This document shows, piece by piece, positions 6,600 through 50,708 of a stretch of 64,000 nt of DNA. The first letter of the stretch is position 1; each line of letters opens with the position of its first letter. A program made the translations under genes and the position numbers. The stretch spans positions 9,447 through 73,446 of the forward strand of contig JADHVZ010000001.1 in NCBI GenBank assembly GCA_016783745.1, given 5' to 3'. This stretch comes from Candidatus Omnitrophota bacterium (lineage in GTDB: Bacteria; Omnitrophota; Gorgyraeia; JAHIPI01). Under the pieces are notes generated by a model. That model was not told where the DNA came from, did not search any database, and saw nothing but the letters and a program-made list of their open reading frames with translations.

Positions 6600-7238
6600 G
6601 TGTTACTGGCCCAAGACAGAAAGTGTACCCTTAAAAAAGTGTCGCGTCTAATTTTTGAAAAACATAGACATTCTATATCAAAAAAAGAGATCAGCGCTCT
6701 GCCTATCAAACATTACACCGGCCCTATCCATGTGATAGATTCGGACGAGAAAATGAGAGCGGCCGTGCGGTCTCTCGGCAGAGAGAAGGTCTTAGGTTTT
6801 GATACGGAGACGAGGCCCGCTTTTTATAAGGGCATATCCTATCTGCCGTCCCTGCTCCAGCTTGCTGCCGGCGACGGGGTATACATATTCCAGATAGGGC
6901 GTATCGATTCTCATAAACCGCTTGCCGGTATTCTGGCCGATCATAATGTGGTGAAAGCGGGCATTAGCGTCTCGGAGGATATAAAGAAACTGAAAGATGC
7001 ATTGCCCTTCGAGCCCTCACGTTTCATCGAACTGGCGGGCATGGCGGCCAAGGCCGGAATAAAGAACGCAGGCATACGCGGCCTGGCGGCGCTGCTATTC
7101 GGTTTCAGGATATCCAAATCGACGCAGTGCTCCCGCTGGGATGCGCCGACGCTTGCGCACGCGCAGATAGTTTACGCGGCTACCGACGCATGGATATGCA
7201 GAGAGATATATTTCGCGCTGAAAAAATGGGTCGGGTAA
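6600..7238 (+). CDS. 3'-5' exonuclease domain protein (DEDDy, RNase D / WRN-exo-like)
   Basis: Exo I motif GFDTETRP, central acidic motif and YAATDAW (Y-x3-D exo III), typical of PF01612-type exonucleases. The exact start is uncertain, with alternative starts downstream of 6600. Confidence 0.65.
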   Translation: MLLAQDRKCTLKKVSRLIFEKHRHSISKKEISALPIKHYTGPIHVIDSDEKMRAAVRSLGREKVLGFDTETRPAFYKGISYLPSLLQLAAGDGVYIFQIGRIDSHKPLAGILADHNVVKAGISVSEDIKKLKDALPFEPSRFIELAGMAAKAGIKNAGIRGLAALLFGFRISKSTQCSRWDAPTLAHAQIVYAATDAWICREIYFALKKWVG

Positions 7239-7952: not shown

Positions 7953-8474
7953 ATGTTACCCAGCCAAGAAATTATGAAGAAAACATTTATAATAGACGGA
8001 TACAACGTAATACATAAAATTCCGGAGCTGTGCGCTAAACTCGAAGAAAGCCTCGAAAGCGCTCGAGATGCTTTGGTAATAGAAATACAAAGTTGGAAAA
8101 GACGGTACGCTGACTCAAAGGCATATATTGTATTCGACGGAAAAAACGAAGACATTTTTGATGATCTGCCTACTCGGATATTAGGAATCGATTGTGTCTT
8201 TACCAGGTCCAAAGAATCCGCTGACGACCGAATAATAAGCATGGTGCGAAACGCGGAAGCCCCATCTCTTATAACTGTTATCTCAGATGACAACCAGGTG
8301 AGGAATGGCTGCAGGATGCAAGGGGCTCAAGTACAATATTCGTCTTTTATCAGCATAAATAAGAAAAAGCCCCACAGGCCGGTTAACCGCATCAACAATA
8401 TTGATAATAACATGCAAGAGCAGGAAATAACCGACTATTACAAGAAACATTTGATCAATAAAGGAATCCTATAG
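7953..8474 (+). CDS. YacP/Rae1-like NYN-domain (PIN-like) predicted ribonuclease
   Basis: FIIDGYNVIHKIPEL... is the conserved YacP-family start. An alternative start lies at MKKTF (7974). AT-rich gene. Confidence 0.6.
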   Translation: MLPSQEIMKKTFIIDGYNVIHKIPELCAKLEESLESARDALVIEIQSWKRRYADSKAYIVFDGKNEDIFDDLPTRILGIDCVFTRSKESADDRIISMVRNAEAPSLITVISDDNQVRNGCRMQGAQVQYSSFISINKKKPHRPVNRINNIDNNMQEQEITDYYKKHLINKGIL

Positions 8475-10788: not shown

Positions 10789-10860
10789 GGGGACAGACAC
10801 TTTTTACATAATTAGGGACGAAGCCTAATTACTAAAGTGTCTGTCCCTATTTTATCGTAG
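10789..10860. repeat. Nested palindromic element copy 1. The outer stem GGGGACAGACACTTT pairs with AAAGTGTCTGTCCC. The inner stem is AATTAGG with CCTAATT.
   Basis: Read directly. Right flank is ATTTTATCGTAGAG. It lies in the divergent intergenic region between the TPR-GT gene and the beta-CASP gene. Confidence 0.8.
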
Positions 10861-11025: not shown

Positions 11026-12318
11026 ATGAAACTAACCATTCATCGCGGGACTCAAGAAATCGGTGGTAGCTGTGTAGAGCTAAACACAGGAAAGTCTCGA
11101 ATACTTATAGATCTCGGAATGCCGCTTGTAAATGATAAAAAAGAGTCTTTTGATTCAAAAACACTTACCAATAAATCTCCGGATGATCTTAAAAAACTAA
11201 AAATCCTTCCTGACATAAAGGGTCTGTATAGAGGTGAAGAAAAAGCCATAGACGGCATTCTTATTTCTCATTCCCATATGGATCATTATGGGTTTCTCAA
11301 GTTTGTGAATCCTGATATACCGATCTATATGAGTGAAGGCGCTAAGATGTTGGTCGAGATATCGGATATTTTTATTCCTCATAAAACGGGGAATCTTAAT
11401 GTAAAGACTATTGATAAAATAAAGAGTTTTGCTATAGGAGAATTTAAGGTCGATTCGTATCTGGCAGATCATTCAGCTTTTGACGCGCGTGCGTTCTTGA
11501 TCGAAGCTGATGGTAAGAGAATATTCTATTCAGGTGATTTCAGGGCCCATGGGAGGAAAAGCGTTCTATTCAAGCGTATGATCTCGCATCCACCGGAAGC
11601 TATTGATGCCCTGCTTATGGAAGGATCAATGATCGGAAGGAGTAATCAGGCCTATAAAGATGAAAATGCCATACAGTCCCGGATCGAAAAGATCTTAAAA
11701 TCCAGCAATAACGTAACTTTCCTGTTTACCTCATCGCAAAATATTGATAGGCTCGTCTCAGCGTACAAGGCATGTATTAAAACCGGACATATCTTCGTAA
11801 TAGACATTTATACAGCTTATATTCTGGACAAGCTTAGAAAAGTATCAAAGGGCATTCCGCAATTCAACTGGCGAAACATCAAGGTAAAGTTTTTGAAAAA
11901 CCAGGCCGACACACTGGCAAAGAAGGTATCAACAAAACTTCTTTATCATTACAATACACAAAAGATAGACATATTCGAGATAAACAGAAAGAAAAACAAG
12001 ATCCTTATGCTTGCGCGTGATAATTCGATTTTTCCCAAGATCATAAAAGGCATAGACGATCCCAGAGGCGCAACAGTCATCTATTCAATGTGGGGAGGCT
12101 ATTTAAACGACAGATTCCGCGACTTCTGCGCAAATAAAGGCCTTACAATCGAACAAGTCCACACAAGCGGCCATGCTACAGTTGAGGATCTGGAAGCATT
12201 TGCGAAGGCCATAAGCCCAAAAACGTTAATACCGATCCATACTTTTGAAGGACAGAAATACCCGGAGATGTTTGAAAACGTTAGAATCTTAAAAGACGGC
12301 GAGCTTTTTGAGATTTAA
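11026..12318 (+). CDS. beta-CASP family metallo-beta-lactamase-fold nuclease (RNase J / CPSF-like core, no KH domain)
   Basis: N-terminal GTQEIGGSCVEL (compare CPSF73 GQEVGRSC), MBL motif HSHMDHYG, ADHSAF...SGDF, and the C-terminal beta-CASP motif-C HTSGHA. Confidence 0.7.
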   Translation: MKLTIHRGTQEIGGSCVELNTGKSRILIDLGMPLVNDKKESFDSKTLTNKSPDDLKKLKILPDIKGLYRGEEKAIDGILISHSHMDHYGFLKFVNPDIPIYMSEGAKMLVEISDIFIPHKTGNLNVKTIDKIKSFAIGEFKVDSYLADHSAFDARAFLIEADGKRIFYSGDFRAHGRKSVLFKRMISHPPEAIDALLMEGSMIGRSNQAYKDENAIQSRIEKILKSSNNVTFLFTSSQNIDRLVSAYKACIKTGHIFVIDIYTAYILDKLRKVSKGIPQFNWRNIKVKFLKNQADTLAKKVSTKLLYHYNTQKIDIFEINRKKNKILMLARDNSIFPKIIKGIDDPRGATVIYSMWGGYLNDRFRDFCANKGLTIEQVHTSGHATVEDLEAFAKAISPKTLIPIHTFEGQKYPEMFENVRILKDGELFEI

Positions 12319-12812: not shown

Positions 12813-13595
12813 ATGAAATTATTGCGGACTATAATTATATTCGATCTTGAGACAACCGGCACATGGGTTGAAAAGGATAAGATCGTTGAGATCGGCATGG
12901 TTAAATTGATGCCGGACGGGACAAGGCAGACTTATGTAAAGCGTGTCAATCCGGGTATGCCGATCCCAAGGAATGTCAGCCGCCTTATTAATATTAACGA
13001 TGATGACGTTAAAGACGCGCCGCCTTTTAAGGATATAGCTAAAGAAGTGACGGAGTTTATAGGCGATTCCGACCTGGGCGGGTTTAATATCCTGAGGTTT
13101 GATCTGCCTATTCTTGAGCGCGAGCTTTATGGTGCCGGCTTTAGCTTTTATTGGCGCGAACGGGACATTTACGATGCTCAAAAGGTTTATCACATACATG
13201 AAAAGAGAGATCTGACAGCCGCTTATAAACTATACTGCGATAAAGAGCTTGAGAATGCTCATTCCGCCCTTGGTGACGCTGAGGCGACAGTTGAGATATT
13301 TGATTCCCAGATCAAAAGGTATGGGGCTCCGGAACAGGGTATAGAGTCTTTGAAAGATTTTGATTACGAGCGCTCCAGCGCATATTTTGATAAAGAGCGT
13401 AAGTTTTTCTGGTGGAACGGGCATCTGTATCCCGTATTCGGAAAGTACGGAAGGAAAAAACATATACAAGATATACTTAAGATAGATCGTCGGTATTTAG
13501 AGTGGATGCTTAGCTCTGATTTTAGTGAAGAAGTTAAAATGATGATTAAAAATGTTCTCAGCGGCAAATTTCCGCAAGCACCCGAGAACTTATAA
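12813..13595 (+). CDS. DnaQ-like DEDDh 3'-5' exonuclease with a C-terminal extension
   Basis: Exo I motif IIFDLETTG, exo II, and exo III HSALGDAEAT (H-x4-D, DEDDh type). About 90 extra C-terminal residues of unknown function. Confidence 0.7.
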   Translation: MKLLRTIIIFDLETTGTWVEKDKIVEIGMVKLMPDGTRQTYVKRVNPGMPIPRNVSRLININDDDVKDAPPFKDIAKEVTEFIGDSDLGGFNILRFDLPILERELYGAGFSFYWRERDIYDAQKVYHIHEKRDLTAAYKLYCDKELENAHSALGDAEATVEIFDSQIKRYGAPEQGIESLKDFDYERSSAYFDKERKFFWWNGHLYPVFGKYGRKKHIQDILKIDRRYLEWMLSSDFSEEVKMMIKNVLSGKFPQAPENL

Positions 13596-14837: not shown

Positions 14838-14876
14838 AATTAGGCTCCGCCCCTAATTACTAAAGTGTCTGTCCCC
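14838..14876. repeat. Partial copy of the palindromic element (inner AATTAGG/CCTAATT hairpin plus AAAGTGTCTGTCCCC arm only)
   Basis: Read directly. The left outer arm is absent and the loop sequence differs from copy 1. Confidence 0.7.
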
Positions 14877-30214: not shown

Positions 30215-30332
30215 GAAAAGGGGACAGACACTTTTTAAGCGTTGTAAAAGGGGACAGACACTTTTTTGAGGCTACGTACAAAGCTTCAAAAAAGTGTCTG
30301 TCCCTATGCTAAAAAGTGTCTGTCCCCTTTTT
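30215..30332. repeat. Double-nested copy of the palindromic element: two forward AAAAGGGGACAGACACTTTTT arms and two reverse AAAAGTGTCTGTCCC arms
   Basis: Read directly. The outer pair (30218-30232 with 30313-30327) and inner pair (30248-30262 with 30290-30304) sit immediately after the HU stop with flanking A/T runs, consistent with a bidirectional terminator-like structure. Confidence 0.8.
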
Positions 30333-46703: not shown

Positions 46704-47219
46704 ATGGAAGACCTGAAAAAAATCATACGCGATGTACCCGATTTTCCTAAAGCAGGGATAATTTTTAAAGATATCACGCCGCTTTTACAGGATCAAGGCT
46801 TTTTTAAAAAAGCCGTGGACAGTATTTGCGGGCAGTACAAGGATAAAAAGATAGATGCGGTTGTGAGCATTGAATCAAGAGGTTTCATTTTTGGTTCCGC
46901 TATTGCTTATAAGCTTGGAGCGGGACTTGTGCCTGTCCGGAAGAAGGGAAAGCTTCCCTATAAAACATATTCCGCTACTTATGATCTTGAATACGGGCAG
47001 GATACACTTGAGATACATCAGGACGCGGTGAGTAAAGGTACCCGGGTTTTGATAGTGGATGACCTTCTGGCCACAGGCGGCACGCTTGGCGCGACCATCG
47101 ATCTTGTGAAAAAGATGGGCGCGGACATAGCGGGCATTGCTTTTTTAATAGAATTGACTTTTTTGAAAGGAAGAGAGAAGCACAAGGATCAAGAGATCTT
47201 TTCTTTGATAAAATATTAA
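46704..47219 (+). CDS. apt: Adenine phosphoribosyltransferase
   Basis: PRPP-binding loop VLIVDDLLATGGT and N-terminal DFPKAGIIFKDITPLL. Confidence 0.85.
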   Translation: MEDLKKIIRDVPDFPKAGIIFKDITPLLQDQGFFKKAVDSICGQYKDKKIDAVVSIESRGFIFGSAIAYKLGAGLVPVRKKGKLPYKTYSATYDLEYGQDTLEIHQDAVSKGTRVLIVDDLLATGGTLGATIDLVKKMGADIAGIAFLIELTFLKGREKHKDQEIFSLIKY

Positions 47220-47314
47220 AGATAGATGCGCCTGCCCGCCTGCGCTATTGTGTAAGTGTTTCTTACGAAGTAAGCTTCGGCGGACACGGCTTCTCATAGA
47301 AGAGTTTCATAGAT

Positions 47315-47393
47315 GCGCCTGTAGCTCATCAGGATAGAGCGGAAGTTTCCTAAACTTCGTCAGCAGGGGGTTCGAGTCCCTCCAGGCGCACCA
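47315..47393 (+). tRNA. tRNA-Arg (anticodon CCT), CCA-encoded, with an atypically long (7-nt) variable loop
   Basis: Hand-folded: acceptor GCGCCTG with CAGGCGC, D stem GCTC with GAGC, anticodon stem GAAGT with ACTTC, loop TTCCTAA (U33, A37), T arm GGGGG-TTCGAGT-CCCTC, discriminator A plus CCA. Confidence 0.65.
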
Positions 47394-47483
47394 CTATAGC
47401 GGTCGGGCTCCGGGGCCAAAAAGTGAGGAATGGGCTTTTTGCCCCTTCGTCCTGCAGCAATGGAATAAGCGGGCAGGACTAGC

Positions 47484-47593
47484 GACCGAGCGCGAAATGC
47501 GCGAGGAAGTGCAGTGTTCAACTGAACGCTGCCGACCGAGCGCGAAATGCGCGAGGAAGTGCAGTGTTCAACTGAACGCTGCCGACCGAGCGC
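47484..47593. repeat. 50-bp tandem direct repeat x2.2 (GACCGAGCGCGAAATGCGCGAGGAAGTGCAGTGTTCAACTGAACGCTGCC)
   Basis: Two exact 50-bp units plus a 10-bp third start. Together with the 47596-47632 palindrome they lie inside 26-bp direct repeats at 47403-47428 and 47663-47689. Confidence 0.8.
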
Positions 47594-47721
47594 TTTTAAA
47601 GAGAAAACTTTTTAGAAAAGTTTTCTCTTTAAGGATCTCTTTCAAAATTCAGCTATGCCGAGTCAAGGCACACTACGACGTTCGGGCTCCGGGGCTAAAA
47701 AGTGAGGGATTATAATTTATT

Positions 47722-48375
47722 ATGATAGATCTGCATACTCATACCATACTTAGTGACGGGGAGCTCCTGCCGAGCGAGCTTGCCAGGAGAGCCGAGGTCA
47801 AAGGCTACCGCGCCATCGGCATCACTGACCACTGCGACTGGTCGAATATAGATTTTGTGGTACCGCATATAGCGAAGGCCGCGGCCAGCCTGAACCGGCA
47901 CTGGAAAATAAAAGTTATCCCCGGAGTCGAACTTACCCATGCCCCTATTGAAGAAATTGAATCACTTACCAGGTTTGCCAGGGAAAACGGCGCCAAGATA
48001 GTAGTAGCTCACGGAGAGACTCTAAGTGAACCCGTCATAAAAGGAACAAATAGGAGAGCCATAGAGTGCGGAGTCAACATACTGGCGCACCCGGGAAATA
48101 TCTCTGAAGAGGATGCCCGGCTCGCTAAAGAAAAAGGTGTCATGCTTGAGATCACGGCACGCAAGAGCCATAACGCGACCAATAAGCATGTAGCGGATAT
48201 TGCGCGTAAAACAGGCGCCAAATTAGTATTTAATACGGATGCTCATAAAGCAGAGAATATTATAACCAAGGATAACGCCATAGAAGTCATGAGCAGCGCC
48301 GGACTGTCAAAAGAAGAGATGGAAAAAGTTTTTCAAAACTCAGAAAACTTTATTGCTTCACTTTTAATTTCTTAA
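47722..48375 (+). CDS. PHP-domain phosphoesterase (histidinol-phosphatase/YcdX-like)
   Basis: N-terminal IDLHTHTILSDG and ITDHCD metal-binding motifs. Confidence 0.6.
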   Translation: MIDLHTHTILSDGELLPSELARRAEVKGYRAIGITDHCDWSNIDFVVPHIAKAAASLNRHWKIKVIPGVELTHAPIEEIESLTRFARENGAKIVVAHGETLSEPVIKGTNRRAIECGVNILAHPGNISEEDARLAKEKGVMLEITARKSHNATNKHVADIARKTGAKLVFNTDAHKAENIITKDNAIEVMSSAGLSKEEMEKVFQNSENFIASLLIS

Positions 48376-50663: not shown

Positions 50664-50708
50664 ATAGGGGACAGACACTTTTAGACATAAAAGTGTCTGT
50701 CCCCTATT
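50664..50708. repeat. Simple hairpin copy of the palindromic element (AATAGGGGACAGACACTTTTAGACATAAAAGTGTCTGTCCCCTATT)
   Basis: Read directly: 19-bp perfect arms with a 7-nt loop, between the DUF4870 gene and the radical SAM gene. Confidence 0.8.

Follow-up and report, generated by a model that had tools for sequence, protein, structure and literature searches.

Several families of interspersed extragenic repeats with secondary structure are known, including the enterobacterial REP/BIME sequences, ERIC, the Correia/NEMIS repeats of Neisseria and the pneumococcal BOX and RUP elements. Structured sequence has also been described downstream of tRNA genes, and the Escherichia coli sponge RNA 3'ETS-leuZ is derived from a tRNA trailer at a single locus. 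In Methanopyrus kandleri, a palindromic 18-nt motif is found ~10 bp downstream of about half of the tRNA genes (PMC5217627). Here we analyse a 64,000-nt stretch of contig JADHVZ010000001.1 from a Candidatus Omnitrophota bacterium (the window), in which a repeat-rich, structured region fills the spacer between a tRNA-Arg(CCT) gene and a gene for a PHP-domain protein. We show that this region consists of one complete and one 5'-only copy of a multi-copy structured repeat that is specific to an Omnitrophota clade, and we refer to this repeat as the trailer element herein, since we tentatively favour the view that it forms the 3' trailer of the tRNAs it follows. Members of the Omnitrophota have not been cultivated; they are ultra-small and may depend on a host, and we know of no work on their RNA biology. 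Full-text searches of the literature gave no description of the element, and it is apparently undescribed.

Anatomy of the two copies in the window

The trailer element begins at the base directly after the CCA of tRNA-Arg(CCT) (47394). It is composed, in order, of a CU linker, a three-way junction of ~104 nt built from helices P1, P2 and P3, a U-run, an AU-rich hairpin (P4) and a pyrimidine-rich tail ending in ...TTCCAAAA; P4 is sometimes duplicated with an extra hairpin. In the window, the tRNA gene and the parts of the two copies are as follows.

47315..47393, + strand: tRNA-Arg(CCT) with encoded CCA (ARAGORN; Rfam RF00005, 54.7 bits)
47394..47497, + strand: core of the full trailer element, three-way junction (covariance model R1, 104 bits, E = 2e-24; minimum free energy fold; covariation)
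47394-47395, + strand: CU linker
47396-47406, + strand: P1, 5' strand
47407-47450, + strand: P2, with pairs 47407/47450 and 47408/47449
47412-47415 with 47442-47445, and 47417-47423 with 47435-47441, + strand: P2 stems
47416 and 47424-47434, + strand: P2 C bulge and P2 loop (UGAGGAAUGGG), respectively
47451-47455 with 47473-47477, + strand: P3, with its variable loop at 47456-47472
47478-47485, + strand: junction strand
47486-47493, + strand: P1, 3' strand, first copy
47483..47593, + strand: 50-nt tandem, 2.2 copies, 100% identity (Tandem Repeats Finder, repeat search)
47596..47632, + strand: P4, AU-rich hairpin with perfect 17-nt arms (47596-47612 / 47616-47632) and a 3-nt loop
47633..47672, + strand: pyrimidine-rich tail GGATCTCTTTCAAAA (compare TGTTCCTTTTCCAAAA of the family) and spacer (alignment)
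47673..47710, + strand: second copy, 5' part only, comprising linker, P1 5' strand, P2 5' strand and part of the P2 loop (CTACGACGTTCGGGCTCCGGGGCTAAAAAGTGAGGGAT)

Across the family, P1 has 11 bp and closes the junction, and a run of four to five U residues comes next in every complete copy. P2 contains 2 bp, then a 3x3 internal loop of pyrimidines, then 4 bp and 7 bp on either side of a conserved C bulge, and is capped by a loop of 8-11 nt that starts with URWGG and measures 8 nt in the copy linked to a transfer-messenger RNA (tmRNA) gene. P3 has 5 bp and a hypervariable loop of 16-18 nt, and the junction strand is 8 nt long with a CUNGCG-like sequence. The two 11-bp arms of P1 form an inverted repeat whose 3' arm lies within the element, followed by a further 40-110 nt of conserved sequence that holds the hairpin and tail.

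The original prediction, made from the letters of the window, had singled out two 26-nt direct repeats 260 bp apart that bracket a mini-hairpin, a tandem duplication and a palindrome. The first of these repeats, TCGGGCTCCGGGGCCAAAAAGTGAGG (47403-47428), begins at the 10th base past the tRNA, and its recurrence with one mismatch is real, with 0 matches in 100 shuffles. The second copy had been placed at 47663-47689, ~19 nt too low; its actual position is 47682-47707. The repeats measure 279 nt from start to start and are separated by 253 nt. In total, 40 nt are shared with 85% identity (47392-47431 and 47671-47710). In the fold, the first 26-nt repeat corresponds to the 5' strands of P1 and P2. 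The GGGC-TTTTT-GCCC sequence (GGGCTTTTTGCCC) is present at 47432-47444 as described, and is reassigned from a mini-hairpin of its own to the 3' strand of P2.

The 50-bp unit in 2.2 copies was likewise recovered. It represents a 100-nt insertion that separates the P1 3' strand from hairpin P4, each unit joining the 11-nt P1 3' strand CGACCGAGCGC (starting at 47483, 47533 and 47583) to a 39-nt segment of unknown origin. The U-run completing P1 (47586-47596) follows the third CGACCGAGCGC (47583-47593) only. Since none of the 10 other copies extending this far has the insertion, we consider the tandem to be recent and strain-specific. The 39-nt segment had no BLAST match among the compared loci (designated by L numbers herein), and homology to the GC-rich inserts of L029, L023, L026 and L017 was rejected as not significant (best case 83/1000 shuffles). 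An independent ENA assembly (L006) reproduces the sequence of the locus exactly. Within the tandem repeat or the palindrome, Logan contigs of the same population come to an end and one scaffold has an N gap; the tandem copy number is therefore a lower bound.

The palindrome with perfect 17-bp arms at 47596-47632 also stood up to re-examination. It is P4, the conserved 3' hairpin of the family (consensus TTTAAAGGGAAAC...GTTTCCCTTTAA), and homologues with compensatory changes are found in L015, L021, L023, L025, L026 and L024. In the tail and spacer beyond it (47633-47672), an apparent decayed copy of the tRNA 3' end (CGAGTC..AGGCACA) was not significant, with 438/2000 shuffles scoring equally high.

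The second copy is cut within the P2 loop, is ~38 nt long and stops 11 nt ahead of the PHP ATG; its GUGAGG, 14 nt before this ATG, is a candidate for the PHP ribosome-binding site. At one covarying position the first copy has C, with a G partner, and the second has T. The second copy is thus derived from a different variant and is no fresh duplicate of the first. A parallel 5'-only fragment, joined straight to the start of an open reading frame (ORF), is present in L029. A small ORF in the P2/P3 region (peptide MGFLPLRPAAME*) was rejected as a coding candidate, its frame and start codon not being kept in L015, L021 and L023. The small non-coding structured element that had been proposed for the tRNA-Arg(CCT)-PHP spacer is present, as a folded, covarying member of a family.

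A structured repeat family at the CCA end of tRNA and tmRNA genes

Copies were located by exact-pattern scans of genome and metagenome collections, followed by a covariance model built from seven copies. These searches yielded 16 copies or fragments in Omnitrophota contigs, window included, and an extra pattern match in a Salinibacteraceae coding region that was dismissed as a chance match. Twelve of the 16 start at the first base after the encoded CCA (CCA+1) of a gene for a tRNA or tmRNA and share that gene's strand in every case. These genes are tRNA-Arg(CCT) in three cases (window, L015 and L032), tRNA-Arg(ACG), tRNA-Ala(CGC), tRNA-Val(GAC), tRNA-Gly(TCC), tRNA-Thr(TGT), tRNA-Met(CAT), one tRNA with a group I intron and one tmRNA. 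Two further copies (L023, L029) lie behind an exact duplicate, 20-21 nt long, of the tRNA-Ala 3' end, 145-160 nt past the real gene, so that 14 of the 16 follow CCA, behind 12 real genes and two duplicated tRNA 3' ends; all of these share the strand of the tRNA. Of the other two, one follows the string GCGACCAA (L021) and one is the 5'-only copy of the window.

Several genomes carry more than one copy. The metagenome-assembled genomes JAFGFD01 (L020, L022) and JAUWWU01 (L023, L032) each have copies on two contigs, contig MHFL01000058 (L024) has two, and the single contig L026 has three, with one copy behind each of three consecutive tRNAs. Copies at different tRNAs of the same genome or metagenome are 89-97% identical, orthologous copies behind tRNA-Arg(CCT) of different genomes are 72-84% identical, and the divergent copies behind tRNA-Thr and tmRNA share 57-70% identity with the rest. 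The left junction is constant (...CCA), while the right flanks are unrelated and do not repeat the CCA, and there is no target-site duplication. Contig ends frequently fall inside the element, which breaks short-read assemblies at tRNA loci.

On the minus strand of L026 (~10589-10440), the trailer of a tRNA-Met(CAT) gene has the 3' modules only, namely the hairpin, half of P4 and the TTCCTTTTTCAAAA tail, preceded on the 5' side by an unrelated hairpin. Since 3' modules occur there without a core, we regard the trailers as mosaics of separable modules. The likeness of copies within genomes, the contig breaks inside the element and the mosaic trailers together point to a spreading or homogenising repeat family, and the sequences bear the marks of copies that would have spread, or been homogenised, within genomes.

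Also on the minus strand of L026 (2699-1760), a tRNA that ARAGORN did not call is split by a group I intron (Rfam RF00028, 93 bits, 2042-1817). The 5' half of this tRNA, GGTGAGGTGCCAGAGCGGTCAAATGG, is duplicated ~630 nt upstream, and the 248-aa ORF in between has no Pfam match.

The fold is carried by covariation. In the alignment, 98.1% of cells are paired, and 12 of the 29 pairs show double compensatory changes among 9 distinct copies; this level was reached by 0 of 500 shuffles, and slid controls gave 1-2 pairs. Near-identical copies show one compensated pair (GGGGCU...ACCCC vs GGGGCC...GCCCC), the Thr and tmRNA copies are compensated throughout, and column 14/57 is G-C, G.U, U-A or C-G depending on the copy. 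Eight copies fold independently into the same branched shape. When RNAalifold was run on the first 8 near-identical copies, it proposed a GGGC/GCCC pairing that replaces P1 and P3. We rejected this pairing since the Thr and tmRNA copies put 14/57 and 15/56 in P2, and the remaining RNAalifold pairs are accounted for by a perfectly stacked three-way junction. G.U cells outnumber C.A cells by 5 to 1 and, together with the fixed orientation, these counts mildly favour the tRNA strand as the one that folds. Covariation cannot separate folded single-stranded DNA (ssDNA) from RNA.

An Rfam scan had been proposed as a check; in the window, only the tRNA matched at the gathering threshold. No Rfam 15 family matches the element: a scan of 47200-47760 at E<=10 gave no match to the core, and a scan of L026, with its three copies, at E<=1 returned only tRNAs, the group I intron and noise. 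Chance miRNA-like matches to the palindrome were also seen in these scans. SRP RNA, tmRNA, hammerhead and HDV-like identities were rejected, with no motif seen by eye and no Rfam match, and the hatchet, twister, pistol and 6S families are among the Rfam 15 models without a match.

A compact junction followed by its own 3' hairpin could belong to a family of trans-acting small RNA (sRNA) genes that borrow tRNA promoters and are freed by tRNA 3' processing as stable RNAs, whose functional site would be either the P3 loop, which is hypervariable, or the purine-rich loop of P2 (URWGG). Consistent with this idea, unpaired positions are strongly conserved (the CU linker, the C bulge, the UYC internal loops, the GG of the P2 loop and the CUNGCG of the junction), and the P3 loop is genome-specific on a conserved scaffold. 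However, no partner protein or target is known, the P3 loop is uncorrelated with the adjacent tRNA, and multi-copy, cut-off and mosaic versions, such as those of L029, the second copy of the window and the L026 tRNA-Met trailer, are atypical of a dedicated gene. We therefore consider an sRNA family to be quite unlikely. The P3 loop as a guide-like specifier of the neighbouring tRNA was rejected, as identical loops stand behind three different tRNAs in one metagenome.

The locus in relatives and the possible role of the element

The window's genes at this locus are all on the + strand, in the order PPDK - sigma-70 - apt (46704-47219) - tRNA-Arg(CCT) - PHP - alginate-export protein, with a spacer of 328 nt from the tRNA to PHP. 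The encoded PHP protein matches an NCBI 'Candidatus Omnitrophica bacterium' protein at 100% identity, and the window belongs to a metagenome-assembled genome. Two features of the locus lie outside the element.

47722..48375, + strand: PHP-domain protein gene, the syntenic downstream neighbour (Pfam PF02811)
47222-47234 / 47309-47321, + strand: 13-nt direct repeat ATAGATGCGCCTG, upstream of the tRNA and separate from the element (repeat search)

The apt - tRNA-Arg(CCT) - PHP synteny is kept in six relatives, and the tRNA-PHP spacer is highly variable.

L012, closest relative, PHP identity 81%: element absent, 22 nt from the tRNA to the PHP ATG
L030, PHP identity 77%: unrelated 280-nt palindromic and tandem block in the spacer
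L013, L017 and L033, PHP identity 71-73%: other sequences in the spacer
L015, PHP identity 71%: the window's element in the spacer
L032, PHP identity 74%: the window's element in the spacer
L031, PHP identity 74%: the window's element, with the contig beginning inside it

The comparison of relatives at the tRNA-Arg locus that had been proposed as a check thus bore out a variable segment, absent in L012 and present in L015, L032 and L031. In L015 and L032 the tRNA is followed by the same 26-mer, then by homologues of the mini-hairpin and last by a homologous AU-rich palindrome.

This distribution decides the suggestion that the region regulates PHP in cis, as a leader or riboswitch. The element does lie directly upstream of PHP on the same strand, and its second copy places GUGAGG 14 nt ahead of the ATG. 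Elsewhere, however, the element precedes unrelated genes, including a Memo/AMMECR1 gene (L023) and other tRNA genes (L026), PHP orthologues exist without it (L012, L013, L017, L030 and L033), and no Rfam riboswitch matched. The leader reading is refuted by the element's distribution, and we give it almost no credence.

The region had also been read as the scar or att-like remnant of a small element that used the tRNA locus, in which case the repeats would be attL/attR or a target duplication, left by a ~260-bp element or by what remains of a larger island. They do flank a segment that is missing in the closest relative, L012, and genuine duplications of the tRNA-Ala 3' end, with inserts of 145-160 nt, are found in L023 and L029; these duplications indicate that integration-type events occur at these tRNAs. 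In the window, however, both repeats are conserved 5' ends of a family found behind many tRNA genes, at more than 10 other tRNA loci without a second repeat. The left repeat is continuous with the remainder of a complete element, the two repeats differ at a covarying site, and the 253 nt between them contain a sole ORF (47497-47715, 72 aa), which has no Pfam match, and no integrase. The repeat shares only the last 2 nt of CCA with the tRNA, and a gapped extension into the tRNA 3' half was matched by 438/2000 shuffles. With two of the three defining features tested found lacking, the att-scar reading is largely refuted, and we regard it as very unlikely. The element can nevertheless be mistaken for the att sites of integrated elements, as it was here.

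The tRNA 3'-end duplications are observations in their own right. In L023 (3281-3459) and L029 (1012-1176), homologous inserts of 145-160 nt run from tRNA-Ala(CGC) to the exact 20-21-nt copy of its 3' end, and in L021 (1729-1835) the last 8 nt of a tRNA-Pro (CCCGACCA) recur ~115 nt downstream. These duplications form a signature that resembles integration at tRNA 3' ends and is distinct from the trailer element.

We next consider the element as mobile DNA. It could be a selfish, non-autonomous element that inserts just 3' of a tRNA-like CCA in one orientation by means of an enzyme encoded elsewhere, for example an IS200/IS605-type single-strand transposase that reads one-strand hairpins, or an integrase. 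The conserved fold would then be an ssDNA recombination substrate or an RNA intermediate, with no functional trailer, and the covariation is equally compatible with folded ssDNA. Presence at the orthologous locus is patchy, near-identical copies sit at different tRNAs of one genome, contigs break at the element, and full and partial copies stand in tandem in the window. The constant CCA|CU left junction, fixed orientation and lack of target duplication form a pattern that is typical of IS200/IS605-derived elements. The tRNA-Arg(CCT)-PHP spacer also appears to be a hot spot, with other small repeat-rich inserts in L030, L013 and L017. On the other hand, genes for a transposase, integrase or reverse transcriptase turned up neither in a Pfam scan of 28 ORFs of the window nor near any copy; viral contigs scanned with the 5' motif and the P4/tail motif gave 0 matches. 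CCA is far too short as a target to account for an exclusive association with tRNA and tmRNA genes, the deep compensated subfamilies (the Thr and tmRNA copies, at 57-70% identity) resemble long-term vertical maintenance, and no filled/empty pair with exact boundaries was recovered. Mobility of this kind is the main rival to the trailer reading and is possible, but on balance we doubt it.

Our preferred explanation, adopted tentatively on the basis of the sequence comparisons, is a co-transcribed tRNA 3' trailer with a terminating or processing role that was spread or homogenised among tRNA loci. The element would be transcribed with the tRNA as its 3' trailer. The P1-closed junction beside the U-run, together with P4, may end or pause the transcript, and a rigid structure 2 nt past the CCA could set where the 3' end is cut or protected. 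Recombination between trailers would spread or homogenise copies among tRNA loci and, in the window, a second copy may have been laid beside an older one, of which the first ~38 nt would remain before PHP. The P4 of the window was flagged as terminator-like by a consensus/simple terminator scan, and the stem before the U4-5 run is a branched junction closed by P1 and no simple hairpin.

Several observations weigh against a trailer. Many tRNAs on the same contigs have no element, which is therefore not essential for tRNA maturation. The P4 in L026 was not flagged by the terminator scan, and P4 is AU-rich and lacks a good U-tract, while terminators of the ordinary kind in this genome have GC-rich stems and long T-runs. 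The 22-nt tRNA-PHP gap in L012 suggests co-transcription; a strong terminator at this position would require a new promoter for PHP, and none was found. Folding energies of the forward and reverse strands are about equal and offer no choice of strand. No more than 9 distinct complete copies underlie the covariation, and for the two most divergent the helices were set by hand, which tilts the result towards the structure.

The element could also represent a new class of genetic element or RNA dedicated to the CCA end of tRNA-like genes, although we think this unlikely. In a mobile version, the element could recognise the tRNA or tmRNA 3' end, as folded ssDNA or an RNA intermediate, and insert at CCA+1. 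In a trailer version, formation of the tRNA 3' end could be carried out or guided by the trailer RNA itself, which might, for instance, cleave itself at its own 5' edge or bring in a nuclease. A true trailer would be a lineage-specific solution for tRNA 3' end formation, and a truly mobile element would have an unusually precise target, the tRNA end; interest would rise further if CCA-end targeting or a role in 3'-end formation were demonstrated.

Other features of the neighbourhood are separate from the element. As predicted, 13 nt that include the tRNA 5' end are duplicated upstream (47222-47234 / 47309-47321). The ATAGATGCGCCTG repeat comprises the tRNA-Arg(CCT) leader and the first 7 nt of the tRNA, duplicated 60-87 nt upstream in the window and L012. 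As the closest relative L012 has this leader duplication too (21 nt, 1 mismatch, 2845-2865 / 2886-2906), we consider it old and retained. An inverted repeat of 20 nt, 75% complementary, surrounds the tRNA (47231-47250 vs 47458-47477), with arms CCTGCCCGC upstream of the tRNA and GCGGGCAGG in the P3 region of the element; chance may account for this repeat, or it may form a long-range stem in the precursor. Approximately 35 kb upstream of the tRNA is a nuclease-type gene cluster encoding a 3'-5' exonuclease domain (6600-7238), a YacP-like NYN domain (7953-8474), a beta-lactamase-fold/RMMBL hydrolase (11026-12318) and an RNase T-like exonuclease (12813-13595), and no link between this cluster and the trailer element was found.

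A second palindromic repeat family, GGGGACAGACACTTTT...AAAAGTGTCTGTCCCC, occurs in the window at 10789-10847, 14862-14876, 30216-30331 and 50666-50705. These palindromes are intergenic, are nested twice at 30216-30331 and in many cases precede a T-run, and the family looks REP-like or terminator-like. A similar-looking GGGGACGTGCCAC block is present in the tRNA-Arg-PHP spacer of L030. In several of these Omnitrophota contigs (L013 2760-2800; L015 2615-2710; L020 6900-7080; L022 3400-3500), tRNA flanks are densely packed with degenerate tandem motifs of 7-8 nt (GCTTATG, CTATGGA, CGGTTAA and similar).

Comparison with known systems

Like the REP/BIME, ERIC, Correia/NEMIS and BOX/RUP repeats, the trailer element is short (100-200 nt), non-coding, multi-copy and strongly structured. 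It is also extragenic, co-oriented and probably co-transcribed with neighbouring genes, modular, and more alike within than between genomes. Those repeats, in contrast, are scattered between protein-coding genes, whereas the trailer element is tied to the CCA+1 of tRNA and tmRNA genes in one orientation, and they are simple palindromes or have terminal inverted repeats, whereas the trailer core forms a three-way junction in which many pairs are compensated. With the trailer element we saw no target duplication, no associated RAYT or transposase and no clear-cut terminal inverted repeats, the 3' arm of P1 being internal. As in miniature inverted-repeat transposable elements, copies are dispersed and multiple, but flanking target-site duplications are absent.

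The IS200/IS605-derived PATEs resemble the trailer element in their orientation-specific insertion right 3' of a short constant sequence, here CCA, in the lack of target duplication and in a conserved secondary structure on one strand. Among 28 ORFs of the window, no Y1 transposase (TnpA) or TnpB was found. The trailer element differs from PATEs in that its ends are not a typical subterminal hairpin pair, and that the target must exceed CCA to account for the exclusive association with tRNA and tmRNA genes. Elements with att sites for tyrosine integrases share the same address, the 3' ends of tRNA and tmRNA genes, and exact duplications of tRNA 3' ends are found nearby in L023 and L029. The trailer element, however, is just 105-215 nt long, has no integrase and does not overlap the tRNA, and one conserved sequence stands behind at least 8 tRNA species, a range that no single att core could match.

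The M. kandleri motif is an archaeal 18-nt palindrome, and neither it nor 3'ETS-leuZ is a three-way junction repeat of ~105 nt. In the M. kandleri motif, as in the trailer element, a conserved structured sequence nevertheless lies at a fixed distance past many tRNA genes of one organism, and with tRNA-trailer RNAs and motifs the element shares a suggested role in 3'-end maturation.

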